NCBI GenBank assembly: GCA_003233345.1
Contig: QILK01000073.1
Span: 6,413-70,412 of the forward strand
Length of the DNA: 64,000 nucleotides
DNA from: Gammaproteobacteria bacterium
GTDB taxonomy: Bacteria > Pseudomonadota > Gammaproteobacteria > SZUA-21
Direction of reading: 5' to 3'
The first letter of the stretch is position 1, and each line of letters opens with the position of its first letter. Shown in pieces: positions 6,383 through 26,551 of the stretch. The notes beneath the pieces are model-generated. The model ran no database searches, was not told the DNA's origin, and saw nothing but the letters and a program-made list of their open reading frames with translations. A program made the translations under genes and the position numbers.

Positions 6383-6712
6383 ATGAGCGAGGGTACTGAT
6401 AGACCAGATAAAAATCCAGACGATGGTCTGGTCGTAGAGACGGCAAAGCCAAAACTTAAACAGCCTCCAATGTTTAAGGTTGTTTTGCATAACGATGATT
6501 TTACACCGATGGAATTTGTGGTTGAAATATTAGAAACATTTTTCAGCATGAATAGGGAAAAAGCGGTACAAGTTATGCTTCATGTTCATACCAGGGGTAA
6601 AGGAGTTTGCGGAGTATTTACCCGGGATATCGCGGAGACCAAGGTTGATATGGTCAATAGGTATGCGCGTGATCATCAACATCCATTGCTGTGTGCAATG
6701 GAAGAAGTATAA
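6383..6712 (+). CDS. clpS: ATP-dependent Clp protease adaptor ClpS
   Basis: 109 aa with a ClpS core ([46 protein letters not shown]). Immediately upstream of clpA. Confidence 0.85.
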
Positions 6713-8990: not shown

Positions 8991-9029
8991 TCTGGCCTCC
9001 ATCTATCTGGATTTTAAGTCAGTGGAATA

Positions 9030-9248
9030 TTATCGTGCACGGAAGCTGATTCTGCCTTTGCTTAAATCGTATGGCGTTAGCTCAACCGTGACTTCGTCGC
9101 CGGTTAATATGCGAATATAATTTTTTCTCATTTTTCCGGATATATGCGCAGTCACAATGTGGCCATTTTCCAGTTCAACTCGAAACATGGTATTGGGTAA
9201 TGTTTCTATTACCTTGCCCTGCATTTTTATACAATCTTCTTTTGCCAT
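9030..9248 (-). CDS. infA: Translation initiation factor IF-1
   Basis: 72 aa ([48 protein letters not shown]...), near-identical to the canonical IF-1 S1-like fold. Confidence 0.92.
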
Positions 9249-9481
9249 ATTACACCTGAATTAAGTACTCTGTTGTTTAATAAAACTCATTCTAGAAGTC
9301 GTTTGGAATCTGGCGGAGGCACGACCAAATAACAGCAGGCATTATAATCACAGGATCAGTTAGATAACAGCGAAAGATGATTAATTTATTATGCGTTAAT
9401 ATTAAACACAATATTTTAGTAAATCATATAATTCATATTAAACAGCGGCTTACAATGATTGTTTAAAAAGAGAGAGGCTTT

Positions 9482-10210
9482 TTAAGTCTCCATTAACTCC
9501 CAGCGATTATTAATATATTGCTCAATGGGGCGGTATTGCTTTTTATAGCTCATTTTTGGGCATTCGTTAATAAGATAACCGAGGTATAGATAGTTGAAAC
9601 CCTGGTTCGCGGTTTCCTGTATTTGCCACAAAATGGCATATCCACCCAAACTATGTTTAGCAAGATCAGGATCAAAAAATGTATAAACTGCAGAGTAGCC
9701 ATCTTCCAGTTTATCCATGACAGCGACAGCAACCAGTTTATTGGCAAGATGAAATTCAATAAAAAAAGTTTGCGTCCAATGACAGGTTAGCATTTCCATA
9801 AATTCCCGAGGCTCTGGGTTGTCCATGCCACCATTTGGGTGACGGTTGTTGACGTATTTTTCATACAGGCTGAAATGTTCTTGGTTAAATTCGGGGAGGC
9901 GAATGGTCGCTTCGATTTTGCTGTTTCGTTTCAGAATTCGGGACTGGCCTCGATTAGGACTAAAGTTTTTGACGGGAATTCGAACGGGTATGCAAGAGGA
10001 GCAAAACTTACAATGCGGGCGATAAACCAGTTCACCACTTCTTCGAAATCCGGAGTAAATGAGCTGGCTATAGATATGATTGTCAAACCGTACCAATGGC
10101 TGCGCATAGATTTCCTGGCTGAATTTTCCAGGTAAATAACTGCAAGGGTGCTCGCCGGAAAGAAAGAGCGTTATTTTATCAGTAATATAGTCTGGCTTGT
10201 CTGAATGCAC
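9482..10210 (-). CDS. bpt: Aspartate/glutamate leucyltransferase (arginyl-tRNA-protein transferase-like, Bpt)
   Basis: 242 aa with an N-terminal CxxC...CxxC pattern (HPCSYLP...CKFCSSC) and a C-terminal ATE domain. Directly downstream of aat, as in many Proteobacteria. Confidence 0.75.
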   Translation of the reverse strand: MHSDKPDYITDKITLFLSGEHPCSYLPGKFSQEIYAQPLVRFDNHIYSQLIYSGFRRSGELVYRPHCKFCSSCIPVRIPVKNFSPNRGQSRILKRNSKIEATIRLPEFNQEHFSLYEKYVNNRHPNGGMDNPEPREFMEMLTCHWTQTFFIEFHLANKLVAVAVMDKLEDGYSAVYTFFDPDLAKHSLGGYAILWQIQETANQGFNYLYLGYLINECPKMSYKKQYRPIEQYINNRWELMET

Positions 10211-10963: not shown

Positions 10964-11181
10964 AATTATTTGACAAAATGGCTGGAATATCAATACTCTT
11001 TGAAAATGTTTTGAAAAACTAGGTAGATACAGGGGAAATCAGGTTTTGGTGCTAAATCGATTCTTGGGAAATAAACAGGTTACGGTATTTTTCAGATAAA
11101 TCGTGATATTCTGAGCCATATTCCATTGCATTTTCATTCATTCGATCAACCCAGAATTCGCCAACAATGGCCCAATCAGCA
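10964..11181. repeat. Direct repeat, copy A (about 217 bp, about 93% identical to 12674-12889)
   Basis: By-eye alignment: copy A (attatttgacaaaatgGCtggaatatcaatactctttgaaaatgttttgaaaAactagg ... ccaacaatggcccaatcagc) matches copy B at 12674-12889, with only a handful of mismatches. Confidence 0.85.
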
Positions 11182-11288
11182 GAATAAACCAGCGTGTACG
11201 GCCAAAGACCGTATGTAAAAGGTGGTATGGAGGCCACAATGACAAGCGCTAATGATTGAAGAATGATGACACTACCAAAGCTAATCAA
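11052..11288 (-). pseudogene. Truncated 3' gene fragment duplicating the C-terminus of the 208-aa protein at 12760-13386
   Basis: The C-terminal 45 aa (ADWAIVGEFWVDRMNENAMEYGSEYHDLSEKYRNLFISQESI) are almost identical to the end of ORF 12760-13386. The N-terminal part diverges and has no counterpart, so the fragment was created by the repeat. Confidence 0.55.
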
Positions 11289-11481
11289 GTAGGCTTATGG
11301 TATTCGAGTGGTTGTGCTAGCAGCCAGAATGAGTGTGTTAAGGAAATATTAAAAGGCGCTGCGGAGAAAAGGCGCACTCTACATCCTACCTATAAGAAAA
11401 AGCTCCACACGTATTGCAATAAAAAATTTAGTAAATAATAAAACGAGTATTTGTATCGCAAAACGTTAATGTGGAGCTTTC

Positions 11482-11742
11482 TTATGGCGCAACTGAGCAA
11501 TCATCCATATCGTATTCATCGAAGACGATCTCTACTACGGCATAGGGCGGGCCATTGAACCAGCTGGAGTTGTCGCTGATCTCGGTTTGCATAACCCGTT
11601 TCTGGCCATTGATCTTGAGACGTGTCACGACATGCGGCTCCAGGCAAATCGCTACCACCACCCGCGACCCGATATCAGTACAGCGCCACCGCTTATTACC
11701 GCAGAGAAATTCATCGCCGATAGAAAAATCCTTAAGCTTCAT
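11482..11742 (-). CDS. Hypothetical protein (86 aa)
   Basis: Clean ORF inside the repeat-flanked cassette; no recognisable motifs. Confidence 0.4.
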   Translation of the reverse strand: MKLKDFSIGDEFLCGNKRWRCTDIGSRVVVAICLEPHVVTRLKINGQKRVMQTEISDNSSWFNGPPYAVVEIVFDEYDMDDCSVAP

Positions 11743-11806
11743 AGTCTTTGATTAATACCGAATGCTCGAGCGCTTAGGGTATTTGGCACATTAAATTTAT
11801 CTCCCT

Positions 11807-12481
11807 TCATTCTTTTTGACTAATAAGAGTGGAAATATATGATTTTCTGTTACTCAAAAAGGTCATTAGTTCTTCGGGATAATCCTTTTTTACAGCTACC
11901 TTTACAGATTGACGAGAATTTAAAGCTTTGCGATAAGCCAGAACTCTAGGTGTCTTATCAAACACCGCAAAATCTGATATTTTTTCAAAAGTATCAAAGT
12001 ATCGAAATACTGTTGGATAAACGGAATCGACCAGATGAAATTTTGCACCGGAAAAAAAAGAACCCTCTTCAATATTACTTTCAAGTTGTTCAAATTTAGT
12101 CATTAAAAAATTACGCCGTTCTTCAAATTCAGCATAACTAGTCGCACTATAAAATTGCCCTATTACATCCAGAATTGATGAACCAAATTCAATCCAAGAA
12201 CGATGTTTGGCTCTTTGAATCGGGTCACTAGGGTGCAAACTCTCAGATGTTATTTCATTTAAAAATTCGCAAATAACAGCCGACTCGAAAATGACCTCGT
12301 TATCAACTATTAGTAGTGGAACTTTAGCAAGAGGGGACATCAATTCAAACCAGTCAGGTGTATTAGATAAATCGATGTACGTTCGTTTGTGAACAATGTT
12401 TTTTTCTTCAAGAACAATAATTGCTCGTTGTACATAAGGGCAGAGATTGTAACTCACTAATTCTAAATTATACTGAAGCAT
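11807..12481 (-). CDS. Glutathione S-transferase family protein
   Basis: 224 aa. N-terminal thioredoxin-like GST fold (SYNLCPYVQRAIIVLEEKNI...KVPLLIVDNEVIFESAVICEFL) followed by a helical C-terminal domain. Confidence 0.7.
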   Translation of the reverse strand: MLQYNLELVSYNLCPYVQRAIIVLEEKNIVHKRTYIDLSNTPDWFELMSPLAKVPLLIVDNEVIFESAVICEFLNEITSESLHPSDPIQRAKHRSWIEFGSSILDVIGQFYSATSYAEFEERRNFLMTKFEQLESNIEEGSFFSGAKFHLVDSVYPTVFRYFDTFEKISDFAVFDKTPRVLAYRKALNSRQSVKVAVKKDYPEELMTFLSNRKSYISTLISQKE

Positions 12482-12673
12482 GTTGTTTTCCTATTAACTT
12501 AACGTGTCAATTCAATAAAAACTTATCTACGGTAACAGCACAAGTTCGAATCAATTCTTCACCACTAGTCTCTCCATTGATCGCCTATACTTCTCTGTCT
12601 TCTTCTCCCGCATACTTTACCCCAGGTAAATCATTGAGGGCTTTGAAAATTACTTGGTAAAGATCACTTCCGA

Positions 12674-12889
12674 TTATTTGACAAAATGGGCGGAATATCA
12701 ATACTCTTTGAAAATGTTTTGAAAGACTAGGCAGATACAAGGGAAACAAGGTTTTGGCGCTAAATCGATTCTTGGGAAATAAACAGGTTACGGTATTTTT
12801 CAGATAAATCGTGATATTCTGAGCCATATTCCATTACATTTTCATTCATTCGATCAACCCAGAATTCGCCAACAATGGCCCAATCAGCG
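12674..12889. repeat. Direct repeat, copy B
   Basis: See copy A. Copy B contains the genuine 3' end of the 208-aa gene at 12760-13386 and about 85 bp downstream of it. Confidence 0.85.
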
Positions 12890-13386
12890 ATATTCATTTC
12901 ATATTGAGCAAGAACGTGATCTTTTTCCAGTCCGCGTTCGGAGGCAATATCAATATGCTCGATTATTTTTACCCACTTTTTAAATGAAACAGGATTAATT
13001 TGATTTTTGCTATTGCTTATGGATTTTGTGGCTGCAGATTTATCTTCGCTACAAAGGACTTGATTGCTTTGATAAGTGCGGCTAGCCGCGACAAAGGCCT
13101 GACTGTAGAGCATCGCAATATCCGCAGATTGATTGCAACTCATTCTTTTTAACCATTCTGAATTAACGGCTTCCCAGGCAATATCATTGAGCCCAGACTC
13201 ATTCAGTATTAGCTCAAGCTTTTCATTATTGGCAAGACGTGCATTGATGTTCGCCCAGGTTTGCAATGAAATTCCCATATAAGATTGTATTTCGCTACAG
13301 GCTTCTTGTTTGCTTGACGCTAGCTCTGTGTGTTGGTTGATTTTGGCATCGTTAAGAAAAGCCTGAAATTTGTCCTTCATGGTCAT
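12760..13386 (-). CDS. Hypothetical protein (208 aa)
   Basis: Long ORF with no recognisable motif. Its last about 45 codons are duplicated at 11052-11186. Confidence 0.55.
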   Translation of the reverse strand: MTMKDKFQAFLNDAKINQHTELASSKQEACSEIQSYMGISLQTWANINARLANNEKLELILNESGLNDIAWEAVNSEWLKRMSCNQSADIAMLYSQAFVAASRTYQSNQVLCSEDKSAATKSISNSKNQINPVSFKKWVKIIEHIDIASERGLEKDHVLAQYEMNIADWAIVGEFWVDRMNENVMEYGSEYHDLSEKYRNLFISQESI

Positions 13387-13832: not shown

Positions 13833-15842
13833 ATGGATATTAAAAAAACAGGTTTTGTGCGTTGCGGGATTATCGGTAGCTTCTTGTTTTTAAGTTTTTC
13901 GTTAATGGCAGCAGATGCGATAAGCAACGCAAAAAAAGCCACCCGTCTTGGACAATATAAAAAAGCATTTGAAATATTCTTATCAGCAGCACAAAAAGGT
14001 AATATCCCCGCTCAGTATCATGTCGGAACATTGTATTTGAATGGCAGAGGAATTAAAAAAGATATTAATGCTGGTGTAAAATGGACTCAGCATGCTGCGA
14101 ATGATGGTTATCCGCGAGCCCAGTATTATCTGGGAACGTTATATAATAATGGTGAACATGTAAAGGTTAATGTCAAGCTAGGAAAAAAGTGGCTGGGAAA
14201 AGCCGCTAAACAAGACTATGCACCAGCGGTCGCTAAGCTTAACGAACTGGATGAAGCGCCAGTGCATGCCCATCAGAAAAAATCGCAAGTGATGCAAGGG
14301 ACTCGCGAAGATAAAATTATTGTGGCTGTTCGCAGAGATAAACTGGATACAGTCAAAATATTACTTAGTTCAGGCGTTTCGGTCGACACCGTTGATACAG
14401 CCAGTCACAAAACGTTATTAATGATTGCGGCAGAAAAAGGGCATAATGATATTGTGTCTTTCCTATTAAAAAATCGGGCCGATGCGAGCAAAAAAGATAA
14501 AACAGGCGGAACGGCGCTTAACCATTCAATACGTAATAATCATACCAAGGCTGCGTTCCTTTTAATTCAGTGGGGTATTAAAATTGATGAACCTAACATC
14601 TATGGTCAGACGCCACTGATTATATCTGTTAAAGCTAAAAAGCTTTTACTGGTCAAAGCATTGGTCGCGAAAAAGGTTAATCTTAATAGCGTCGATAAAA
14701 AGGGTAACACCGCTCTTGACTATTCTCGTATGCTCGAACGGAAACAGATAGAGAAATTTTTATTGGATCATAAGGCGATCGCAAAAAGTACCTTGTCTAT
14801 TGTTCGCACTAACAGTAGCAATATCACCCGTGTTACGCCAACTTATAAAAACTGGACTTTATTGCTGGAGGCTTCCTGGCGAGGACAGGAAGGTTTGGTT
14901 AGCAGATTGTTAAAAAAAGGTGTGAGTATTAATAGCACCGACGAAGATGGTTATTCTGCGCTTATCCGTGCATCCTGGAAAGGGCATTTGCACATCGTGG
15001 AGATTCTGGTTGATGCCGGTGCGGATATTAATTATAAGCAAAAAAGAGGGTTGACCGCACTAATGCTGGCGGCAAAGCATAATCACGTAGAGGTCGTTAA
15101 TTATCTGCTAGCGAAAAACGCCAATGTTGAGCTACGGGATAATTCGGGGTCTAATGCCGTTATTATGGCCACAAAAAATAACAGCATAGATTCACTCAAG
15201 CGTCTGATCCGTGCCAAAGCCGATTTAAACACACGCGATAAAAGTAAACTAACGGCGCTTATGTGGGCGTCACAGAATAATAGTGTCACCATCAGTAAAA
15301 TGCTTGTGCATGGTGGTGCTCGAGTGGATATGCATGATAATAAAAGACAGGTTGCCTTGTGGCACGCAGCGCTCGCTGGATCAGAAAGGGCCTTTGATTA
15401 TTTGATGACAATAAGAATTGATATCAATAGTAAAAACAACGAAGGTGATACATTGTTAATGCGAATGGCCACTTCAGGTAAAGTGAGTATTGTTCGAAAA
15501 TTAATTAGGCGTGGTGCATCAGTAAGGCTAAAAAATAATATTGGTGATACGGCGTTAATGGCTGCCAGCGGGAAAAATAGACTAAAGGTAGTGCAAATAT
15601 TATTAACAGCCAGGTCTGATGTTAACGTAAAAAATAATATTAATAATACTGCGCTGATGATCGCGTCCAAAAAAGGCCATAGTCAGATGGTCAATTTATT
15701 GTTAAAGCATAAAGCCAGGGTCAGGATTCGCAATAAAGACAAAAAAAATGCAAGGGAACTGGCTCAGCAGGGTGGATTCAAGCGTATTGCCAAAATATTA
15801 GAAAAACATGAAAGCAATGGCGGGTTATTCGGTATTTTTTAA
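13833..15842 (+). CDS. Secreted Sel1-repeat / ankyrin-repeat fusion protein
   Basis: 669 aa with a signal peptide (FLFLSFSLMAADA). About 4 Sel1 repeats (AQYHVGTLYLNGRGIKKDINAGVKW; AQYYLGTLYNNGEHV...), then at least 12 ankyrin repeats with the recurring G-TALM-A---GH---V--LL--GA-VN pattern. Confidence 0.8.
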   Translation: MDIKKTGFVRCGIIGSFLFLSFSLMAADAISNAKKATRLGQYKKAFEIFLSAAQKGNIPAQYHVGTLYLNGRGIKKDINAGVKWTQHAANDGYPRAQYYLGTLYNNGEHVKVNVKLGKKWLGKAAKQDYAPAVAKLNELDEAPVHAHQKKSQVMQGTREDKIIVAVRRDKLDTVKILLSSGVSVDTVDTASHKTLLMIAAEKGHNDIVSFLLKNRADASKKDKTGGTALNHSIRNNHTKAAFLLIQWGIKIDEPNIYGQTPLIISVKAKKLLLVKALVAKKVNLNSVDKKGNTALDYSRMLERKQIEKFLLDHKAIAKSTLSIVRTNSSNITRVTPTYKNWTLLLEASWRGQEGLVSRLLKKGVSINSTDEDGYSALIRASWKGHLHIVEILVDAGADINYKQKRGLTALMLAAKHNHVEVVNYLLAKNANVELRDNSGSNAVIMATKNNSIDSLKRLIRAKADLNTRDKSKLTALMWASQNNSVTISKMLVHGGARVDMHDNKRQVALWHAALAGSERAFDYLMTIRIDINSKNNEGDTLLMRMATSGKVSIVRKLIRRGASVRLKNNIGDTALMAASGKNRLKVVQILLTARSDVNVKNNINNTALMIASKKGHSQMVNLLLKHKARVRIRNKDKKNARELAQQGGFKRIAKILEKHESNGGLFGIF

Positions 15843-15903: not shown

Positions 15904-16971
15904 ATGAGTATTACCTATAACAAAAAAAAGGAAAGATTAACACCGATAGTGCGTGAGCATTCTATAGAGCAGGTTTCACAGCCTCCGCGGGTTTCAGAGG
16001 CTTCACAAGGTTTAGCCGATAAGCTTCCCGACACCGCAAGCAAGCCACCAAAGAAAACCACGCAAAAGAAAACCAAACAAAAGCAAACAAAGCAAAAGAA
16101 AAAGCGCCCCGAATCAGTCATGCTTAAGTTTTTTACACTGGCATTTACTGCGCTTGTTTTATATGTGCTCTTCGATGGCTGGGTTAACCGGGTTGATGAG
16201 CGGTTTCTTCCCAATAAAGGCAGGGGGCTTTACTACGGTATTATTGGTGCGGCCATGATGGTGTTGTTATTGTTATATCCTGTCAGAAAGCACATGAGGT
16301 TTTTTAGAAAGTGGGGGAGGGTAACCTACTGGTTTCGGGCGCATATGATGCTGGGGATTATGGCACCGGTTTTGATATTGTATCATTGTGATTTTAAGTT
16401 GGGTTCATCTTGGAATAGTTTTGTGGCTTTAATGTCGATGTTTCTTGTTGTTTGTAGCGGCATTATCGGAAGATTTATATACCGACAAGTACATAATTTA
16501 AAAAATAGTCATCACTATACTTATGACCAAATGCGCAAAGTACTGGCGACAGAGAAATCAATTTTTGATCAAAGTTTCAAGTTGTCGGACGAGGCTATTA
16601 GTTTAATCAACAACTTTGAACTTTATTTGGGTAAGAAAAAGGGGGTTTTAGCGCATCTGATCTCGTTACCCATTATACACATGAAGGCCAAGGAGTATTC
16701 TGTCCGTTTAATATCCTTGATAAGGAAGCAGGTTTATAGCTCCCCTGAGTATCGCAATTTACCTCGACGTGCAAAGAAAAATATGTTTTTGGAGTATAAG
16801 GTGCTGGTGGATCGATATTTTAAAAATATTCGACGAGCAGCAAACTATTCGATTTACGAAAAACTATTTTCTTTATGGCATGTGTTGCACTTTCCGCTAT
16901 TTATCCTCCTGATATTTAGCTCTGCGCTGCATATTATTATCGGTTTTATGTATGGCTATATTCAATTCTAA
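15904..16971 (+). CDS. Integral membrane protein with polybasic N-terminus (hypothetical; first gene of the cytochrome cluster)
   Basis: 355 aa. The N-terminal about 70 aa are soluble and lysine-rich (KPPKKTTQKKTKQKQTKQKKKRP). Four or more hydrophobic helices follow, with conserved His (RAHMMLGIMAPVLILYHCDF), then a C-terminal soluble segment and a last TM helix. Confidence 0.55.
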   Translation: MSITYNKKKERLTPIVREHSIEQVSQPPRVSEASQGLADKLPDTASKPPKKTTQKKTKQKQTKQKKKRPESVMLKFFTLAFTALVLYVLFDGWVNRVDERFLPNKGRGLYYGIIGAAMMVLLLLYPVRKHMRFFRKWGRVTYWFRAHMMLGIMAPVLILYHCDFKLGSSWNSFVALMSMFLVVCSGIIGRFIYRQVHNLKNSHHYTYDQMRKVLATEKSIFDQSFKLSDEAISLINNFELYLGKKKGVLAHLISLPIIHMKAKEYSVRLISLIRKQVYSSPEYRNLPRRAKKNMFLEYKVLVDRYFKNIRRAANYSIYEKLFSLWHVLHFPLFILLIFSSALHIIIGFMYGYIQF

Positions 16972-17050
16972 TGATCGTTGCCAAGTTATAATTAATGGAA
17001 AGTAATTAAATGACGGCTCAATTGTGGTAAGTGATATCGTTAGAGCTAAA

Positions 17051-18619
17051 ATGTCTATTTATATTAAAAAATTTTTGACGATAGTCTTAATACTGTCCTC
17101 TTTTATTTCACTCAATGCATTTGCTGACCGGGTCGAAGCGTTTGTGATGCCGGGTGAGGTGATTAAAGGGCATGCCAAGCTGGAAACCAATTGTGTCAAG
17201 TGTCACAAACGATTTGATAAGAAAGCACAAACTCGATTATGTCTGGATTGCCATGATAAAATAGACGCTGTTATGAAAAAACGTAGTGGCTTTCATGGAA
17301 AATCACCGATTGTTAGGAAGAACCTGTGTAGTGCGTGTCACACTGAGCATAAAGGCCGCGATGCTGATATCATCAAGTTGGATAAACGTAATTTTAATCA
17401 TAAATTCACCAACTTTCTACTTAAAGGCCAGCATAAGAAACTTGATTGTAACAGTTGTCACCAAGCCGGTAAGAAATATACAGAGGCAAAATCGACAGTT
17501 TGTTATGGCTGTCATAAGAAAGATGACAAACACAAATTACACCTGGGTAAAAAGTGCGAAAAGTGTCACACGGAACAAAAATGGAAAAAAACCAAGTTTG
17601 ATCATGATAAAACCAAATTTAAGCTGACCGGAAAACACAAGGAAATTGTATGTGAAAGTTGTCATGCTAACGAGCGATATAAAGGTATCCCAACGAAGTG
17701 TGCAACTTGTCATAAGATTAATGATGTTCATAAGGGTAAATTAGGCGACAAATGTGACGAGTGTCATACCACCAAAAGTTGGGGGAAAATGTCATTTGAT
17801 CATGATAACGAAACTGAATTTCCGATACGAGGAAAGCATAAACAACTGAAATGTAAGGCTTGTCATAAAAAAGACCCCAAAGACGAGGAACTTGCAAAGC
17901 AATGTTACGCCTGCCATAAAGTTGACGATAAACATAAAAGTAATTTTGGCCAGAAATGTCAAACGTGTCATAGCGAAAAGGGGTGGGATCACTCGAAGTT
18001 TGATCATGACCGGGATACTAAGTTTCGATTGAAAGAAAAGCACACCAAGGCAGATTGCACAGATTGTCATAAAAAACCTTTGTACAAAACCAAGACCAGC
18101 AGCAAATGTTATAGTTGTCATAAAATCGATGATAAACACAAAGGCAGTCAGGGTAAGAATTGCCAGAAATGTCATAACGAAAAAAATTGGAAATCAAAAA
18201 TTGCCTTTGATCATGATTTTACTAAGTTCCCGCTGGTTGGATTACATGCGCTGGTAAACTGCAAAGAATGTCATACGCAGGAAAGTTTTTCCGCTACCAA
18301 AAAAAGCTGTATCAGCTGCCATAGGAAAAAGGATGTACATAAACTAAGATTGGGGACTTTTTGTGAATTATGTCATACCCCAAATGGATGGAAAATCTGG
18401 AATTTTGATCATGACCGGCAAACTGAATATCCATTAAAAGGTAAACATAAAGGTCTTAATTGCATTAAATGTCATAAACGTCCCGTGAACAAAAAGAGTA
18501 TAAAGTTGGACGCAAACTGTTCAAATTGTCATAGTCAAGACGATCCTCATGATGGAAAGTTTGGTAGCAGTTGTGCAAGTTGCCACAAAGTGTCTTCTTT
18601 TAAGGACATAGATATTTAG
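17051..18619 (+). CDS. Multiheme c-type cytochrome: 21 CxxCH motifs in seven triheme c7-like modules, lysine-rich
   Basis: The track ORF starts at GTG 17024, but ATG 17051 gives a classical signal peptide (MSIYIKKFLTIVLILSSFISLNAFA). I hand-counted 21 CxxCH motifs. There are seven repeats of about 72 aa, each shaped like FDHD-T-F-L-GKH----C--CH ... C--CHK-DD-HKG--G--C--CH. My count gives about 98 Lys (about 18%). Confidence 0.85.
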   Translation: MSIYIKKFLTIVLILSSFISLNAFADRVEAFVMPGEVIKGHAKLETNCVKCHKRFDKKAQTRLCLDCHDKIDAVMKKRSGFHGKSPIVRKNLCSACHTEHKGRDADIIKLDKRNFNHKFTNFLLKGQHKKLDCNSCHQAGKKYTEAKSTVCYGCHKKDDKHKLHLGKKCEKCHTEQKWKKTKFDHDKTKFKLTGKHKEIVCESCHANERYKGIPTKCATCHKINDVHKGKLGDKCDECHTTKSWGKMSFDHDNETEFPIRGKHKQLKCKACHKKDPKDEELAKQCYACHKVDDKHKSNFGQKCQTCHSEKGWDHSKFDHDRDTKFRLKEKHTKADCTDCHKKPLYKTKTSSKCYSCHKIDDKHKGSQGKNCQKCHNEKNWKSKIAFDHDFTKFPLVGLHALVNCKECHTQESFSATKKSCISCHRKKDVHKLRLGTFCELCHTPNGWKIWNFDHDRQTEYPLKGKHKGLNCIKCHKRPVNKKSIKLDANCSNCHSQDDPHDGKFGSSCASCHKVSSFKDIDI

Positions 18620-18939
18620 AAAAGGAGTATGCGTGTAGAAATAGAATATATAAGTTGTGCTTGGATTAATATTACTTTATATTAGACGCGTGTGGTTTTT
18701 TCACACCTCATAAAAATTGTTAGTGGTATATGAAGGTAGATCAGATACCGCTATTAGAGAGGTAAAGCAATAATATAAAATTGAATAGTTAAATGATTTA
18801 TTTAAGACTCTATGCTAGCAACCGAAATTTAGTGTGTATTACGCTTATGGACGAAATGAAATTATCAAAAATGTAATTTCATAAATACACAAATAATTAA
18901 CTGGGATAGGATTTCCCACAAAATAAAAAGCGATATCAA

Positions 18940-20688
18940 ATGGACACTTGGGAAAGGACGCTGTGCAGATTGCATTTGAGGGGCTATCTTAAGTTCCTAG
19001 TGCTTGTCCTGCTAACCTTTACCTTTCTCGTTATCTCAAATCCAGTTTCTGCTAAAAAAGTCACTCAGAAATTTAACCACGACAAAACCGGGTATACACT
19101 TGAAGGTATACATGTCTACGCGGATTGTGAAAGCTGTCATGCGCGTGGAATTTTTAAAGGCACACCTAGAACCTGTCAAGGTTGTCATGCACAAGCCGGA
19201 CGTATTACTGCTACACGAAAACCGATAAATCATATATCGTCATCTGCCGACTGTGGCCAGTGCCATACATCAACGGCTTGGAAACCGGCGAAAATTGATC
19301 ATTCAAAAATCACGGATTCCTGTAATAGTTGTCACAACGGCACAACAGCTACGGGTAAATCAAAGAATCATATTACCACCAATGCACAGTGTAACGTTTG
19401 TCATAGTTCACGTGCCTGGGTTCCGGCAAACTTTAATCATAGTACTATCACCAGTGGTTGTATTAAATGTCACAATGGCACAACCGCGATTGGGAAGACA
19501 AAAGGCAAACATCCGCCCTCGAGTAATAGTTGTGAGAGTTGTCACACGATCAATTCGTTTAGCTTTAATCATACCAATGTAAGGGGCGATTGCTTTAGTT
19601 GTCATAATGGTACGACCAGTGGCGGCAAGAAAAGCGCACGGCACGTCGTTAGCGACAACCGTTGTGAAGTTTGCCATAAGAATAATCGTGCTTGGACATT
19701 TACTCACGGTTCAGGCATCACCGGGTGTAGCAACTGCCACTCGGGCCAGACAAAAGGAAAGCAAAAAGGTGCCAAGCATATTGTTACCGTAGCGAGTTGT
19801 GAATCTTGCCATAAAAGTACCAGTACATGGACGTTTGATCACAGTAACGTAAAATCTGGATGTACAAATTGCCACCGGGGACAAACAGCCGGTAGGCAGA
19901 TAAACCCAGCTACTCATGTAAAAGTGGCGCCAACAGTAGATTGCGCGGTTTGTCACGGCAGTAATACATCATGGACTGTCAATGTCGTGGTAAACCATGC
20001 GAGTTTTACTGGTACTTGTAGCGGATGCCACAACAAGAACGCGACGCATATGCCTACTTCCAATAGCTGTGGTGGTTGTCATAAAACAACAAAAGGTGGA
20101 TTTCTAAAAGCAAATACCAATGTCGATCATCGGCAAATTACCGTTTCATGCCAGACTTGTCATACTGGCAAATATGCCACCTCAAAGAAAAGTACAACAC
20201 ATGTTGCGACGACTAACGCCTGTGCAAATTGTCACAAGTCGACTGCCCAAGGTGGTTGGCCAACGAATATAAAGATGGATCATACGCAATTGGTCGGTGC
20301 GGGTGCCTGTGCTACCTGTCATAAGACCGGTGGTGTTGGGACACCAAAGCCGCAGGTACATATGAATACCACACTGGCATGTGATATTTGCCACGACAAG
20401 ACCACGACTTGGGCTATCAGGTCGATCACTTACACCCATCAGGCCGGATTGACTCAAGGTTGGTTTAAACATGGTTCGCTTACGTCTTGTATAGACTGTC
20501 ATGCTTCCAATGGCCTTGTGCAATGGGAAACCGGTCTCTATAAGAAGTCGTGCGCTGGTTGTCATGCCAGGCAGTACGAACCGGAAAATGACCATTTACC
20601 ACCGATTACTTCGATAGAGGCTAATAAACATTGCGGTGGTACTGTACCAGGTGGTACTGGCTGTCATGGTAGAAATCGAGGGTTTTAA
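18940..20688 (+). CDS. Multiheme c-type cytochrome: 21 CxxCH motifs, Thr/Asn/Gly-rich
   Basis: 582 aa with a hydrophobic signal-like segment (LKFLVLVLLTFTFLVISNPVSA). An in-frame TTG near 18976 with a GGA before it would give a shorter, cleaner signal peptide. I hand-counted 21 CxxCH motifs. CxxCHNGTT(A)xGK and NH/KH(x5-7)CxxCH units recur, supplying the distal His needed for bis-His haems. Confidence 0.85.
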   Translation: MDTWERTLCRLHLRGYLKFLVLVLLTFTFLVISNPVSAKKVTQKFNHDKTGYTLEGIHVYADCESCHARGIFKGTPRTCQGCHAQAGRITATRKPINHISSSADCGQCHTSTAWKPAKIDHSKITDSCNSCHNGTTATGKSKNHITTNAQCNVCHSSRAWVPANFNHSTITSGCIKCHNGTTAIGKTKGKHPPSSNSCESCHTINSFSFNHTNVRGDCFSCHNGTTSGGKKSARHVVSDNRCEVCHKNNRAWTFTHGSGITGCSNCHSGQTKGKQKGAKHIVTVASCESCHKSTSTWTFDHSNVKSGCTNCHRGQTAGRQINPATHVKVAPTVDCAVCHGSNTSWTVNVVVNHASFTGTCSGCHNKNATHMPTSNSCGGCHKTTKGGFLKANTNVDHRQITVSCQTCHTGKYATSKKSTTHVATTNACANCHKSTAQGGWPTNIKMDHTQLVGAGACATCHKTGGVGTPKPQVHMNTTLACDICHDKTTTWAIRSITYTHQAGLTQGWFKHGSLTSCIDCHASNGLVQWETGLYKKSCAGCHARQYEPENDHLPPITSIEANKHCGGTVPGGTGCHGRNRGF

Positions 20689-20759: not shown

Positions 20760-23216
20760 ATGAAATCAGTCATAAGAATAGTATTGGCTTTTAGTATAAC
20801 GGTACTGGGTATCGTTAGTGGTCAAGCGCAAACTGTTACTGAAGAGTTTAACGTTTTAAAAACGCTGGAAGCACGCATTAATATTGCTGTCTCTGAATTT
20901 ACGATACATTTTAACCTGCCCGTAAACTACTTGGGTCATTCGCCAACAAAAGAAGGCAAACACATTATTATTCGTGTTGCCCCAATCGGTCGAAACCCCC
21001 GGGATGTAACCGGATTTACTTCAAGTACCGCTTTGAATAATCCAATGAGTTTTGGTGGAAGGGAAGTTTTGTCCTGGACCGCGACCAAAGAGCTGCCTTT
21101 AACGGAAGTGGAATATGAAGGCACCAATATTGGTGGACCGATTATTGAAGTCAGTTTCACGCGTAGTGTTAAATACAAAGTTGTCCCAAGTAAGGATTTG
21201 CGTAGTCTGACTATTCTGGTCGAAAACGAGAAGCAGGCAAAAAGCACATCTAAGCATAACTACTTGCTTAACCTGTCGACTTCGGGAAAACCCTTTGATG
21301 TTACCAGTTTGGACACTGGAAAATTTCCAGAAAACTATGTTTTTTTCCCTACCCATAGTGTAGTCGACAACAAGTCCGTCAATCACCTGAAAGTGGGGTT
21401 TTTTAAAACCCCAAGGGATATTCGTGAAGCCCTTAAAAAGTTAAAACCCTATTATCCAGATGCAAAGGTAATGTTATCAACGGATGAGGATATAAAGGTT
21501 GCAAAACAATACCAGCGAGATCAGAAGCTAATCGCTAAAACAACACCACTAAAAACCCCCGCCCCCGGAAAAGAATCACCGGCGATAGCAAGTAATTCGC
21601 GCGATATTATGGAAAAGGCAAAGTTTACTTTGCTAGAGGGCAATTATGATAAAGCAATTGAGCAATATACCGTCGTGATTCAAAAAGATCCGAATGGCCA
21701 ATATGCACAGGAAGCCCAGGAATACCTGGGATTAACCCGGCAGCGTAATAATCAGGTTGCCCATGCAATTGCAGAATACAAAAAATATTTGCAAAAATAT
21801 CCGCAAGGCGAGGGCGCCACGCGTGTTAAGCAGCGTCTTAATTCCTTATTAACCGCGTCACATGATCCGCGAGGGAAATTACCGGGGACTACGACGGAAG
21901 ATAAAAAATCACCTTGGCGGCTCTATGGAAATGTTTATGGTAATATCAGGTACGATAATTCTAAAACCGTTATCAAGGCTACTAATACTAAAATCAAAAA
22001 TCAGACGACCACTTATGTTACCAGTTTAAATGCGACTGCCAGAAAAAGAACAGAAAAAAGTGAGACAAAAATACGATTCACTGGTATATATCGAGATGCG
22101 GATGATGGTACAAATCGCAATAACAGAAGTGGACGCGTTAACTATTTTTATGTAGACCATAAAGATAAAGTGCGTAATTATGGTTACCGTATTGGTCGTC
22201 AGGCAAAAAGTAGCGGTGGCGTCTTGGGCCGTTTTGATGGCATATCGGTGGATTATAAAATTAGTTCGCGTTATAAGGTTAACTTCGTTTCTGGTTACCC
22301 CGTCAATTTTACCAAATTTGGACAAATTGAAACTAACCGTTATTTTTATGGTGTTAACACTGACATTTCCACCAAGAATAAATATTTGACTTTTAATGTA
22401 TTTGCTATCAATCAGGTTATTGATGGTATTAGTGATCGGGAGTCAATCGGTGGCGAGGTTCGCTATATGAACCCGAAGCACTCATTGTTTGCATTGGTTG
22501 ATTACGACCATTCTTATCAGGAATTAAATACTGTCTTCGTTTCCAATAACTGGCGCTTTAAAAATAAGGCGGTTGTTAATGTAACTTATGATTATAGAAG
22601 AAGCCCAGTATTAACAACTAGTAATGCGTTGCAAGGGCAGACGGAAGGATCAATAAAAGAGCTTTTACGTCGACTTAGCGAGAGCCAGATCAGACAGTTA
22701 GCCCGTGATCGTACGGCGACCTACAAATCGGTATCGGTGGGAGGCACTTATCCACTTGCCCATGACTTGTATCTAAACGGAAATGTTACGGTTGCTGAGC
22801 TCGAAGGTACAGTTGCGTCGGGTAATGTTGCGGCTGTTCCTGATAGTAGTCAAGAATATTTTTATTCACTACAATTAATAAAAAACAGTTGGTTAAAGGC
22901 CGGTGATGTATCAATATTTGGTATTCAGTTTGCTGATGCAACAACTTATCAGCGGACATCCTATTCGTATGGCATCCGCTATCCTCTAACACCCAGAATC
23001 CGAATTCGTCCAAAGTTTGAATATGATGTACAGGATATAAATGACGGCACTGAAGTCACTACCTACCGCCCCTCTTTACGTGTTGATTATCGTGCGAGCA
23101 ATAGATGGCGTTGGGAACTGGAAAGCGGCTATTCATATGCTGAAATCAGGAATTCTGCCAGTGACAGCGATCAGACCGATTACTTTATCAGTATGGGCTT
23201 TATTTATGATTTCTAA
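20760..23216 (+). CDS. Outer-membrane protein: N-terminal domain, TPR-like repeats, C-terminal beta-barrel (putative porin partner of the cytochromes)
   Basis: 818 aa with a signal peptide (MKSVIRIVLAFSITVLGIVSGQA). TPR-like helical repeats lie in residues about 290-370 (YDKAIEQYTVVIQKDPNGQYAQEAQEYLGLT...AIAEYKKYLQKYPQGEGAT). The C-terminal about 440 aa show alternating hydrophobic/polar amphipathic beta-strand periodicity and end in ...GFIYDF, the aromatic C-terminal residue used as a BAM signal. Confidence 0.7.
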   Translation: MKSVIRIVLAFSITVLGIVSGQAQTVTEEFNVLKTLEARINIAVSEFTIHFNLPVNYLGHSPTKEGKHIIIRVAPIGRNPRDVTGFTSSTALNNPMSFGGREVLSWTATKELPLTEVEYEGTNIGGPIIEVSFTRSVKYKVVPSKDLRSLTILVENEKQAKSTSKHNYLLNLSTSGKPFDVTSLDTGKFPENYVFFPTHSVVDNKSVNHLKVGFFKTPRDIREALKKLKPYYPDAKVMLSTDEDIKVAKQYQRDQKLIAKTTPLKTPAPGKESPAIASNSRDIMEKAKFTLLEGNYDKAIEQYTVVIQKDPNGQYAQEAQEYLGLTRQRNNQVAHAIAEYKKYLQKYPQGEGATRVKQRLNSLLTASHDPRGKLPGTTTEDKKSPWRLYGNVYGNIRYDNSKTVIKATNTKIKNQTTTYVTSLNATARKRTEKSETKIRFTGIYRDADDGTNRNNRSGRVNYFYVDHKDKVRNYGYRIGRQAKSSGGVLGRFDGISVDYKISSRYKVNFVSGYPVNFTKFGQIETNRYFYGVNTDISTKNKYLTFNVFAINQVIDGISDRESIGGEVRYMNPKHSLFALVDYDHSYQELNTVFVSNNWRFKNKAVVNVTYDYRRSPVLTTSNALQGQTEGSIKELLRRLSESQIRQLARDRTATYKSVSVGGTYPLAHDLYLNGNVTVAELEGTVASGNVAAVPDSSQEYFYSLQLIKNSWLKAGDVSIFGIQFADATTYQRTSYSYGIRYPLTPRIRIRPKFEYDVQDINDGTEVTTYRPSLRVDYRASNRWRWELESGYSYAEIRNSASDSDQTDYFISMGFIYDF

Positions 23217-23280: not shown

Positions 23281-23658
23281 TTGGCCGCTATAGTGTTTAC
23301 TCATCAACATTGTAGTAGATTCCCCATGCGTATAAATGATCTGTGTGAAGCGATAGAAACAACCAAATGGGATATTGCACTGGAAGCATTGCTGAATGAA
23401 ACCTTCAGTAAAAATCACAGGATTGATCTGGAAATCTTAAGTCAACTGTCAAAGCAATTTTCAATTCGATTTGAAGATTTGGTGGTAACCTTGTTTGAGC
23501 TTACTTTTTGTGAGCAATGGCAATATATGGATATAAACGGAACACCGCAAATGTTAAAACATCAGGATCTGGATAAACTTTATTTAAAAAGCCGGATCTA
23601 CTTAGCCAGCGCTAGCCATCTTACCGGCTATTGGCAACCGCTAGCGGATAAACGATAA
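23281..23658 (+). CDS. Hypothetical protein (125 aa; the start may be the internal Met at about 23326)
   Basis: ORF with no recognisable motifs. Confidence 0.35.
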   Translation: MAAIVFTHQHCSRFPMRINDLCEAIETTKWDIALEALLNETFSKNHRIDLEILSQLSKQFSIRFEDLVVTLFELTFCEQWQYMDINGTPQMLKHQDLDKLYLKSRIYLASASHLTGYWQPLADKR

Positions 23659-23764: not shown

Positions 23765-24271
23765 ATGAGCGAAAAATATCAGGTAGTCTTTAAAGGCGAG
23801 CTGGTTGAAGGCTGTGACCTGGAAGAGACCAAAGTAAAAGTAGCTGCTTTGTTTAAAACGTCGGTCGATGCGATCGATAAACTGTTTTCCGGCTCCCGAG
23901 TCGTTATCAAGGACGACCTGGAAAAAAGTGTTGCTGATAAATATTATGCAGCGTTGTTTAAATGCGGTGCGCAATGCGAAGTTATTAATAAGTCTGAGCC
24001 AAGCGTTACCGCTATTGAAACCGATAAAACTGACAAGAGCGTTGCTGACACTGATTCGTTAGAGAAAGACTCTGATCTACTGGCCCCGCCAGGCGTTATC
24101 ATCATCAAGGGTGAAAAAATACCAAAACCTGTTATTGATACCAGCGCATTTTCGATGGCCGATGTCGGGGAAACGATTATCGAGGCACAAAAGGTGAAAG
24201 AGCCAGAAATAAATATCGAATCGTTGGAAATGGCGGAAATTGGGGCAGATTTACTGTCGTCGAAAGAATAA
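23765..24271 (+). CDS. Hypothetical acidic protein (168 aa)
   Basis: Clean ORF, strongly acidic (D/E-rich). No motif recognised. Confidence 0.45.
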   Translation: MSEKYQVVFKGELVEGCDLEETKVKVAALFKTSVDAIDKLFSGSRVVIKDDLEKSVADKYYAALFKCGAQCEVINKSEPSVTAIETDKTDKSVADTDSLEKDSDLLAPPGVIIIKGEKIPKPVIDTSAFSMADVGETIIEAQKVKEPEINIESLEMAEIGADLLSSKE

Positions 24272-24742: not shown

Positions 24743-25510
24743 ATGAATTCAAAACTTATTATTTTGTGGTTAAGCCTGGTTTTTTCATCGTACAGCCATT
24801 CGCAGAATTTATCTAATTCAACGGTGCCCGTTGCTGATAGGCTTCCTTCGGTGTCTGTAAATGACACGTCTAAGAGCAAACTTAATAGCGTTAAAGATAC
24901 ACTTAGCCCGGCTCAGTCTTATCTCAGTTGGAAGGCAGCAGCAGAAAAGGGTGATACTAATTCTCAATATAATCTGGGTCTTGTTTATGAGCAAGGATTG
25001 GGTACAGCCGTTGATCTGCAACAAGCAGCACGTTGGTATAAAAAGGCATCCATGCAGGGACACGCTGTTGCAGCATATAATCTAGCCACAATGGCTCACC
25101 AGGGCCACGGAATGAAGGCAGATATAAAAATGGCGAAGCATTGGTACGAATTTGCTGCCAAAAAAGGCTATTTACTTGCTCAGGCCAGTCTCGGGTTTTT
25201 GTATGCAACAGAAAACACACCTTTTACCGATGTAAAGAAAGCGGTTTACTGGTTTAACAGAGCGGCCAAGCTCGGTCATCCAGAGGCTCAGTTTAATCTT
25301 GGTATGATGTATTCTACTGGCAGAGGAATAGAACTTGATTATATCAAAGCTTATGCTTGGTTCAATGTATCAGGATTTAACCGTTACAAAAATGCGATTG
25401 AAAGTCGAAATTTTGCGGCCGCCCGGCTTACTGTAAAGCAACTTGAATCAGCCCAGGCTCTATCGAATCACTATCGCGAACTCTACTTTAAGAAGCAAAC
25501 GCCTAAATAG
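24743..25510 (+). CDS. Secreted Sel1-repeat protein
   Basis: 255 aa with a signal peptide (LIILWLSLVFSSYSHS). About 5 Sel1 repeats (SQYNLGLVYEQGLGTAVDLQQAARWYKKA; AAYNLATMAHQGHGMKADIKMAKHWYEFAAKKG; AQFNLGMMYSTGRGIELDYIKAYAWFN). Confidence 0.75.
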   Translation: MNSKLIILWLSLVFSSYSHSQNLSNSTVPVADRLPSVSVNDTSKSKLNSVKDTLSPAQSYLSWKAAAEKGDTNSQYNLGLVYEQGLGTAVDLQQAARWYKKASMQGHAVAAYNLATMAHQGHGMKADIKMAKHWYEFAAKKGYLLAQASLGFLYATENTPFTDVKKAVYWFNRAAKLGHPEAQFNLGMMYSTGRGIELDYIKAYAWFNVSGFNRYKNAIESRNFAAARLTVKQLESAQALSNHYRELYFKKQTPK

Positions 25511-25636: not shown

Positions 25637-26551
25637 ATGGCATCTGCCGGATCAAAAAAAGTAATCATCGCAGCACTAATTGGCAACGCATTAGTCGCCT
25701 TTTCAAAGTTTATTGCCGCTACAATTACCGGTAGTTCGGCAATGTTTTCCGAAGGAATCCATTCTGTGGTTGATACTGGAAATCAAGCATTATTGCTCTT
25801 CGGTATTTCACGGGCAAAAAGACCACCGACGGAAGAATTTCCATTTGGTTATGGAAAAGAAATTTATTTCTGGAGTTTTGTGGTGGCGATGTTATTGTTT
25901 TCAGTGGGGGCCGGTCTTTCCATCTATGAAGGCATACATCGTATTTATGCTCCTACACCGATTACCAATCCAGTCGTTAATTACATTGTTCTGGGATTGG
26001 CGATTTGCTTTGAAGCGGTCGCATGGATTATGGCCTATAAGCAGTTTTCAAAAGAAAAAGGTTCCTGGAGTATTATAGAAGCGGTCAAACGTGAAAAAAA
26101 TCCAACGACATTTGTTGTGTTGTTTGAAGATACCGCAGCAATTATTGGATTATTGATCGCGTTACTGGGTGTTGCTTTAAGCAGTGTTACTGGAATGGCA
26201 ATCTTTGATGGGATAGCGTCGCTGGTCATCGGTTTGGTTTTAGGATTGACTGCATGGTGGTTAGCAATAGAAACCAAGGGATTGCTTATAGGTGAAAGTG
26301 CCAATAAGGAAGTTGTTGAGCAAATCAGAAAATTGGCACTGTCAAACGAAGGCATCACCCATGTCAATGAATTGTTAACTTTGCATATGGGTCCAGAGTA
26401 TGTGCTTGTGAATATTGCCGTTGATTTTAAGGATCATTTATCAGCAACGGAAATCGAAAGTACCGTAGCGTTATTGGATACAGCGATTAAGCGTAAGCAT
26501 CCGCGGGTAAAACGTGTCTTTATCGAAGCAGAATCCAGGTCAAAAAGGTAA
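25637..26551 (+). CDS. Cation diffusion facilitator family transporter
   Basis: 304 aa with six TM helices. A CDF signature lies in TM2 (HSVVDTGNQALLLFG) and a C-terminal cytoplasmic domain is present. Confidence 0.8.
   Translation: MASAGSKKVIIAALIGNALVAFSKFIAATITGSSAMFSEGIHSVVDTGNQALLLFGISRAKRPPTEEFPFGYGKEIYFWSFVVAMLLFSVGAGLSIYEGIHRIYAPTPITNPVVNYIVLGLAICFEAVAWIMAYKQFSKEKGSWSIIEAVKREKNPTTFVVLFEDTAAIIGLLIALLGVALSSVTGMAIFDGIASLVIGLVLGLTAWWLAIETKGLLIGESANKEVVEQIRKLALSNEGITHVNELLTLHMGPEYVLVNIAVDFKDHLSATEIESTVALLDTAIKRKHPRVKRVFIEAESRSKR

Follow-up and report, generated by a model that had tools for sequence, protein, structure and literature searches.

Cytochrome 1 of contig QILK01000073.1: probable periplasmic 21-haem component of a PCC3-type predicted trans-envelope electron conduit

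Introduction

The question raised by the locus described here is which electron transfer system a long poly-triheme cytochrome belongs to, and whether its seven modules and its lysine content set it apart. The gene, referred to as cytochrome 1, lies in a 64,000-nucleotide stretch of contig QILK01000073.1 (assembly GCA_003233345.1, contig positions 6,413 to 70,412), which is called the window throughout; coordinates are window positions unless a related locus is named. An earlier reading of the letters and open reading frames (the original prediction) had described the product as a seven-module haem wire of the Geobacter GSU1996 type. According to the analysis reported here, cytochrome 1 is probably the multihaem cytochrome that serves the periplasmic section of a predicted trans-envelope electron conduit of the PCC3 type. 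The decisive evidence for this identity is the PCC3 gene context, which the original prediction had missed. Cytochrome 1 is not a new architecture; it belongs, as an ordinary member, to a kind already known from bioinformatic definition. What remains of interest is the open problem of PCC3 itself, together with its apparently undescribed linked genes. With the window, PCC3 gains a further instance from an uncultured gammaproteobacterium, probably of marine or vent origin, that has no known link to iron oxidation.

Results and Discussion

Identification of the PCC3 cluster

Cytochrome 1 is the second of four co-directional genes, which encode an inner-membrane protein (IMP), cytochrome 1, a second multihaem cytochrome (cytochrome 2) and a porin-like protein. 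The definition of PCC3 is a bioinformatic one, from He et al. 2017 (PMC5566968). Its published parts are an IMP of ~300 aa that carries the motif WX3HX13H twice as well as an SGXXG motif, a periplasmic multihaem cytochrome (MHC) with a median of 21 haems, a low residue-to-haem ratio and repeat units, an extracellular T/S/A/G-rich MHC and a very large porin (PMC5566968). The cluster was identified as PCC3 because its gene order matches this definition. For comparison, the IMP was used as marker against GTDB species genomes, and 80 loci were fetched around IMP relatives.

The IMP (15904..16971, + strand, 355 aa) is a candidate di-haem-b transmembrane electron relay. It contains both WX3HX13H motifs (W143-x3-H147-x13-H161 and W325-x3-H329-x13-H343) as well as the SGxxG motif (S185-G-I-I-G189), and the four motif histidines are invariant in 22 homologs. 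The expected helices are present in an AlphaFold2 model, and the fold is compatible with di-haem-b proteins. Cytochrome 1 (17051..18619, + strand, 522 aa) has the properties of the periplasmic MHC, with 21 CxxCH motifs, 24.9 aa per haem and a 68-aa period; haem count, residues per haem and repeat richness all match the PCC3 of He et al. Cytochrome 2 (18940..20688, + strand, 582 aa) corresponds to the second, T/S/A/G-enriched MHC. It has 21 CxxCH motifs, 38% T/S/G/A, an isoelectric point (pI) of 9.2 and a Sec-type signal peptide without lipobox. The fourth gene (20760..23216, + strand) encodes an outer-membrane porin-like protein of 818 aa with a signal peptide, a TPR segment at ~aa 280–360 and the C-terminal residues FIYDF. 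Domain searches gave TPR/BamD-like matches, and matches in the PDB span the TPR segment only. In 48 loci, the equivalent position is taken by a full-length homolog with 33–36% identity.

The same four-gene architecture with the IMP motifs is found in Sideroxydans lithotrophicus ES-1, where the periplasmic PCC3 cytochromes include Slit_0869 (21 haems) and Slit_1447 (24 haems). An ortholog from a Sideroxydans metagenome-assembled genome (MAG; locus L077) also has 21 haems, with 19.4% lysine. In contrast to Sideroxydans, the host of the window is an uncultured low-GC (42%) gammaproteobacterium and not a known iron oxidiser. ClpA from the window is 86–87% identical to ClpA from two MAGs, 79% to that of a hydrothermal-vent metagenome, 75% to Thiotrichales and 72% to Thiogranum. 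The nearest relative shares the PCC3 cluster together with the chromosomal flanks icd-clpS-clpA-infA-ate-aat, which argues for vertical inheritance of the cluster.

Gene, start codon and signal peptide

The open reading frame (ORF) of cytochrome 1 at 17024..18619 (+) was confirmed as real. The start had been called ambiguous between GTG 17024 and ATG 17051, and both are indeed in frame. NCBI uses the ATG (522 aa) and IMG the GTG (531 aa). The methionine derived from the ATG is where the alignment with 68 homologs begins. The choice is immaterial, since both starts give the identical mature protein after cleavage between AFA and D. The Sec-type signal peptide proposed from ATG 17051 was borne out by sequence inspection and by homolog N-termini, which align to the ATG start. 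It comprises 25 aa (17051..17125, +), MSIYIKKFLTIVLILSSFISLNAFA, and is followed by D. A lipobox cysteine was not found at the signal peptide by sequence inspection.

An automated count over 531 aa returned exactly the 21 CxxCH motifs that had been counted by hand, and none of the variant motifs CxxxCH, CxxxxCH or CxxCK. The protein contains 42 cysteines, 44 histidines and 98 lysines. The predicted density of one haem per about 25 residues likewise held, with 24.9 aa per haem overall and ~23.7 in the mature protein. Shuffled versions of the protein with composition kept (20,000 trials) had 0.28 CxxCH motifs on average and 4 at most.

Long antisense shadow ORFs occur inside the gene, e.g. at 17792..18175 (-). 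In the nearest relative (GCA_054014035.1, locus L081), a 21-haem ortholog of cytochrome 1 on the + strand at 11014..13077 was left uncalled in the public record, and two antisense ORFs of 102 and 484 aa are annotated in its place. Repeat-rich cytochrome genes of this type appear prone to mis-annotation.

Module organisation

Spacings between CxxCH motifs recur along cytochrome 1 as 16–19, 18 and 32–33 residues, and its self-identity peaks at lags 68 and 135. Both results confirm the periodicity that the original prediction had assumed. The organisation as seven triheme modules also stood, with the reservation that module 1 is divergent and of a different subtype. Module 1 (17126..17380, +; aa 35–119 in GTG numbering) is 85 aa long, resembles c3_2 and DmsE and has its distal histidines at H41, H82 and H100 (ATG numbering). 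The six canonical triheme modules were delimited by module alignment and fill 17381..18616 (+): module 2 at 17381–17584, module 3 at 17585–17785, module 4 at 17786–17989, module 5 at 17990–18193, module 6 at 18194–18394 and module 7 at 18395–18616. Modules 2–6 measure 67–68 aa and module 7 measures 74 aa; the canonical unit is thus 67–68 aa and not about 72 aa as first estimated.

The canonical consensus is FDHDxxTxFxLxGKH-x4-CxxCH-x11-14-CxxCHKxDDxHK-x3-G-x2-3-CxxCH-x3-W. The FDHD-type pattern had been ascribed to every module. It is present in modules 2–7, but module 1 has no FDH element, and GKH is separated from the first CxxCH by four residues instead of six. Invariant across the aligned modules are F, T, G, D, six cysteines and six histidines. 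The triheme, apparently all-bis-His grammar of the module is hereby made explicit. Identity between modules is only 35–48% at the protein and 45–61% at the DNA level, so the duplications that gave rise to them must be old. Recent module duplication was ruled out by the same values.

Haem ligation and relationship to other multihaem cytochromes

The six invariant histidines of each module are three from CxxCH motifs and three distal ones. Among 38 orthologs with 21 haems, 42 cysteines and 42 histidines are each at least 97% conserved. Mature cytochrome 1 contains only three methionines, and the sole conserved one (aa 42) lies ahead of haem 1 in module 1. From the 42 conserved histidines and the lack of a conserved methionine placed as haem ligand, all 21 haems are predicted to be bis-His.

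The proposed relationship to c7/c3 triheme domains was supported by two comparisons. Pfam PF14522 (Cytochrome_C7), which the original prediction had suggested as a check, matches cytochrome 1 in six stretches with 91.8 bits, above its gathering threshold of 24.8 bits; Cytochrom_c3_2 and Cytochrom_CIII match as well. The module profile was aligned with hhalign to PpcA, whose sequence was checked against PDB 1OS6. The alignment has a probability of 79% and an E-value of 1.6e-5, with the three haem motifs in matching order. Against the PDB, the module profile gave weak class-III matches only (Hmc 5e-5, nine-haem cytochrome 7e-5, GSU1996 chains E 0.009–0.09), and phmmer of cytochrome 1 against PDB sequences gave no matches.

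The label "GSU1996-type" was not supported. The NCBIfam model TIGR04257 (nanowire_3heme, cutoff 40 bits) scores 10 bits on the whole protein, 10.3 on a single module and 18.2 on a register-shifted unit. NF043011 (CytC7_Geobact) reaches 11.8 of the 120 bits that it requires. In GSU1996, each triheme domain has one His-Met haem (PMC10138318), a feature that is not present in the modules of cytochrome 1. GSU1996, the dodecahaem "nanowire" of Geobacter sulfurreducens (PDB 3OV0), is like cytochrome 1 a periplasmic polypeptide of tandem c7-like triheme units with a very low residue-to-haem ratio. It differs in having four domains instead of seven, in its His-Met haems as opposed to the predicted bis-His ligation throughout, and in the absence of a dedicated IMP/porin cluster context. 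By sequence, cytochrome 1 is built like a polymer of this type and stands outside that family.

PpcA, a triheme c7, resembles a single module in its size of ~70 aa, its three bis-His haems and its richness in lysine. The order of distal histidines differs, however: it is H-x2-H, haem I, His, haem III, haem IV in PpcA and H-x10-H, haem 1, haem 2, His, haem 3 in the module. PpcA is also a monomeric shuttle, whereas cytochrome 1 is a polymer. With MtrA/MtoA of the MtrCAB/MtoAB systems, cytochrome 1 shares the proposed role of a periplasmic wire that inserts into a porin and connects to a surface cytochrome. Compared to these decahaem proteins it has twice as many haems, a modular triheme repeat and no membership in TIGR03508 (MtrA/DmsE decahaem), whose match of 16.8 bits (cutoff 192) is confined to the N-terminal module. 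The partners differ too, being a di-haem-b-type IMP for cytochrome 1 and CymA/NapC-type quinol dehydrogenases for MtrA/MtoA.

Related loci and variation in haem number

Among the first 600 pattern matches listed for GTDB species genomes, at least 557 were IMP relatives. These relatives belong to Gamma-, Alpha- and Betaproteobacteria, Nitrospirota, Thermodesulfobacteriota, Binatia and Verrucomicrobiota. Directly downstream of the IMP, 79 of the 80 related loci encode a homolog of cytochrome 1 (45–51% identity for full-length orthologs), and homologs of cytochrome 2 are present in 76. Compared with other PCC3 orthologs, cytochrome 1 shows only 45–56% sequence identity. The usual order in the fetched loci is IMP, cytochrome 1 homolog, T/S/G/A-rich cytochrome and porin-sized ORF. 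The wider cytochrome 1 family comprises 1,136 cluster representatives at 50% identity (E≤1e-30). With these representatives and the number of IMP relatives, PCC3 ranks among the most widespread of the predicted trans-envelope electron conduits.

Counting the haems of the IMP-adjacent cytochrome in 70 complete loci gave 36 cases with 21 haems, 17 with 18 and 13 with 24, together 66 of 70. The T/S/G/A-rich partner ranges from 7 to 57 haems. Haem numbers of 21, 24 and 27 were published for periplasmic PCC3 cytochromes of Gallionellaceae (PMC9900912), and a 21/18-haem complex for Sideroxydans ES-1 (PMC8788666). Seven modules, singled out earlier as special, are on the basis of these published counts and of the 36 loci the modal state of a known family, and 21 haems had already been reported for PCC3 (PMC5566968, PMC9900912). 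In the 18- and 24-haem variants, one central module was lost or gained at ~aa 280–393 and the terminal modules were kept.

Homologs of the Nitrospira type with 30–39 haems were found in L083 (5570..12029) and L084 (5723..11671). They do not adjoin a PCC3 IMP and stand in the order DUF6502, DUF5666, cytochrome, NHL-repeat protein, which suggests a second, distinct system using the same poly-triheme wire. Giant relatives (P0363 with 2,321 aa, P0367, P0389 and P0364) contain the same triheme unit with the recurring spacing 32/16/25. They reach 94 CxxCH motifs in 2,321 aa, ~25 aa per haem, and several have less than 1% lysine.

Genes linked to PCC3

A gene for a secreted Sel1 and ankyrin-repeat protein of 669 aa (13833..15842, +; Pfam Ank and Sel1) lies 61 bp upstream of the IMP and is a probable accessory gene. 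Of 82 loci, 29 carry a homolog (24–47% identity, at least 80% coverage) no more than a few kb from the IMP; among the 36 well-flanked loci there are 15. The protein may act in the periplasm as a scaffold or chaperone of the long cytochromes.

A second linked gene encodes a membrane-anchored Fe-S/FAD oxidoreductase of ~436 aa with 2x[4Fe-4S] and Pyr_redox_2/3 (FAD/NAD(P)) domains, e.g. at 8366..9676 (-) of L005. Linkage to the IMP was seen in 55 of the 82 loci and, when only well-flanked loci are counted, in 31 of 36. The gene is usually divergent from that of the IMP, at a median distance of 630 bp, and its product is 54–69% identical between loci, which is above every core PCC3 component. The oxidoreductase was not found in the 64-kb window, in the closest relatives (L001, L081 and L082) or in Sideroxydans or Nitrospiraceae loci. 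The window cluster thus differs from most PCC3 loci in having the ankyrin/Sel1 gene directly upstream and no Fe-S/FAD oxidoreductase. One possible role of the oxidoreductase is electron input from the cytoplasm, in a split NOX-like arrangement. Alternatively, it could have a role in cytochrome maturation. This was considered because ccmE/F/G/H/I genes lie within 10 kb in ~19 of 85 PCC3-type loci, although none lie in the window, and because ccm genes stand directly beside the oxidoreductase in L083 (14148..18715) and L085 (1..886).

Neither gene is mentioned for PCC3 in the main text of He et al. (PMC5566968), and a literature search for PCC3 and ankyrin returned nothing relevant. Their linkage to PCC3 is apparently undescribed and could change the working model of PCC3.

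Proposed function and alternative readings

Export of cytochrome 1 would proceed via Sec and its maturation via the Ccm system. The protein would then hold 21 covalent bis-His c-type haems in one divergent N-terminal and six canonical c7-like triheme modules. Scaled from GSU1996, which has 12 haems in 12 nm (PMC10138318), these haems may form one continuous chain of ~17–21 nm. Such a chain could carry electrons between the di-haem-b IMP encoded upstream and the porin and 21-haem surface cytochrome encoded downstream. A link of this kind by a periplasmic MHC was proposed by He et al. (PMC5566968) and Hoover et al. (PMC9900912). Docking would take place at the conserved terminal modules, with the central modules as spacers open to gain or loss, which fits the 18- and 24-haem variants, as these differ centrally and keep their terminal modules.

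Several points weigh against the assignment of cytochrome 1 to a bridging role in PCC3. Both PCC3 clusters of Sideroxydans ES-1 are downregulated on Fe(II) (PMC8788666). The components of PCC3 are biochemically and genetically uncharacterised, and papers from 2025–26 still call PCC3 functionally unverified. The predicted porin role of the 818-aa protein rests on homologs, position, signal peptide and C-terminal phenylalanine. Finally, an IMP-adjacent ortholog with 33 haems is present at a bona fide PCC3 locus (L085), so the length of the cytochrome is not strictly tuned to the width of the periplasm. A "periplasm ruler", in which periplasm width fixes the haem number at 18–24, was weakened as a candidate by the same cytochrome.

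In a further-reaching reading, a rigid cytochrome 1 of ~20 nm plugs the di-haem-b IMP directly into the porin and PCC3 works as a split NOX-like electron exhaust. We hold this combination to be possible, though doubtful. If it were true, electrons would cross the entire envelope via two b-type and 42 c-type haems without a diffusible carrier, and cytoplasmic NAD(P)H would feed the conduit via the Fe-S/FAD oxidoreductase in most lineages, though not in that of the window. With such an exhaust, PCC3 would differ from the quinone-coupled Fe(II)-oxidation conduit of the literature.

Cytochrome 1 could also be a periplasmic electron capacitor, a soluble and freely diffusing store of 21 electrons and not a fixed bridge. 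Poly-triheme cytochromes of the GSU1996 type have been proposed as capacitors (PMC10138318), and Hoover et al. raise this role for the haems of PCC3 (PMC9900912). Cytochrome 1 has no membrane anchor, and the 33-haem ortholog speaks against a strict length requirement. However, cytochrome 1 is outside the GSU1996 domain family, its gene is near-universally adjacent to those for IMP, porin and surface cytochrome, and the retention of terminal modules while central ones vary suggests defined docking ends. A capacitor is therefore regarded as unlikely.

A swapped topology, in which it is cytochrome 1 that passes through the porin or lies at the surface and cytochrome 2 is periplasmic, is less credible still. 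In its favour, a Sec-type signal peptide without lipobox is found in each of the two cytochromes, and the published localisation is by prediction only (PMC5566968); yet cytochrome 1 is the conserved, length-quantised partner that always adjoins the IMP, the haem number of the T/S/G/A-rich cytochrome varies as expected of a surface-exposed part, and the published assignment (PMC5566968) agrees with a periplasmic cytochrome 1.

Lysine content and charge

The hand count of about 98 lysines in 531 aa was exact (18.5%). The computed pI of 9.3 is high, as anticipated, but not extreme. Cytochrome 1 is the most lysine-rich of 45 long ORFs in the window (18.6% versus a median of 6.9%), and lysine richness as a mere consequence of genome composition was rejected on this ground. 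Among 70 orthologs, it ranks second for lysine and fourth for lysine plus arginine. Lysine ranges from 0.2 to 19.4% and pI from 4.2 to 9.7 in these orthologs, so basicity is not a property of the family.

Within the gene (37.5% GC), lysine is encoded by 65 AAA and 32 AAG codons. GC content of the locus correlates with ortholog content at a Spearman rho of -0.41 for lysine and +0.40 for arginine. The nearest relative, with a genome of ~59% GC, has nearly the same number of basic residues (K47+R61=108 versus K95+R15=110 in cytochrome 1), and 32 lysines of cytochrome 1 align to its arginines. AT bias sets lysine over arginine in the polybasic protein. The apoprotein has a net charge of +47; 42 haem propionates bring the holoprotein to ~+5, and the ~110 basic residues would mainly offset these propionates. 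Given this balance, the lysine/arginine exchange with the relative and the 24% lysine of PpcA, a canonical c7, the lysine content is best read as charge compensation together with a polybasic lineage trait spelled in AT-rich codons.

The original prediction had seen in the lysines a functional polycationic surface for docking an acidic partner (cytochrome 2, lipopolysaccharide or extracellular polymeric substance, nucleic acid or mineral), and the high ranks of cytochrome 1 in the window and among orthologs would suit this; it is nevertheless very improbable, as cytochrome 2 is basic and not acidic (pI 9.2), ortholog lysine and pI span the wide ranges above, lysine and arginine are interchanged with the nearest relative, the holoprotein is near neutral and the canonical c7 is itself richer in lysine.

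Intergenic region and downstream genes

The gap between cytochrome 1 and cytochrome 2 (18620..18939) is unusually long with 320 bp and AT-rich. The corresponding gap is ~385 bp in the relative L082 and ~40 bp in L014, the only other locus inspected. It holds only a weak GTGTG/CACAC hairpin, and an Rfam scan of the PCC3 cluster including the gap gave no match. Promoter-like sites in the cluster were not in excess (31 versus 31.3 in shuffled sequence), and terminator-like sites were absent from gene boundaries on its coding strand. The gap may be an internal promoter or regulatory region.

The porin gene is directly followed by two small ORFs (23281..23658 and 23765..24271), of which no related locus contains a homolog. 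Further downstream, a second Sel1-repeat protein (24743..25510, +) and a CDF-family cation-efflux transporter (25637..26551, +) are encoded, and this pair also follows the cluster in the relative L081.

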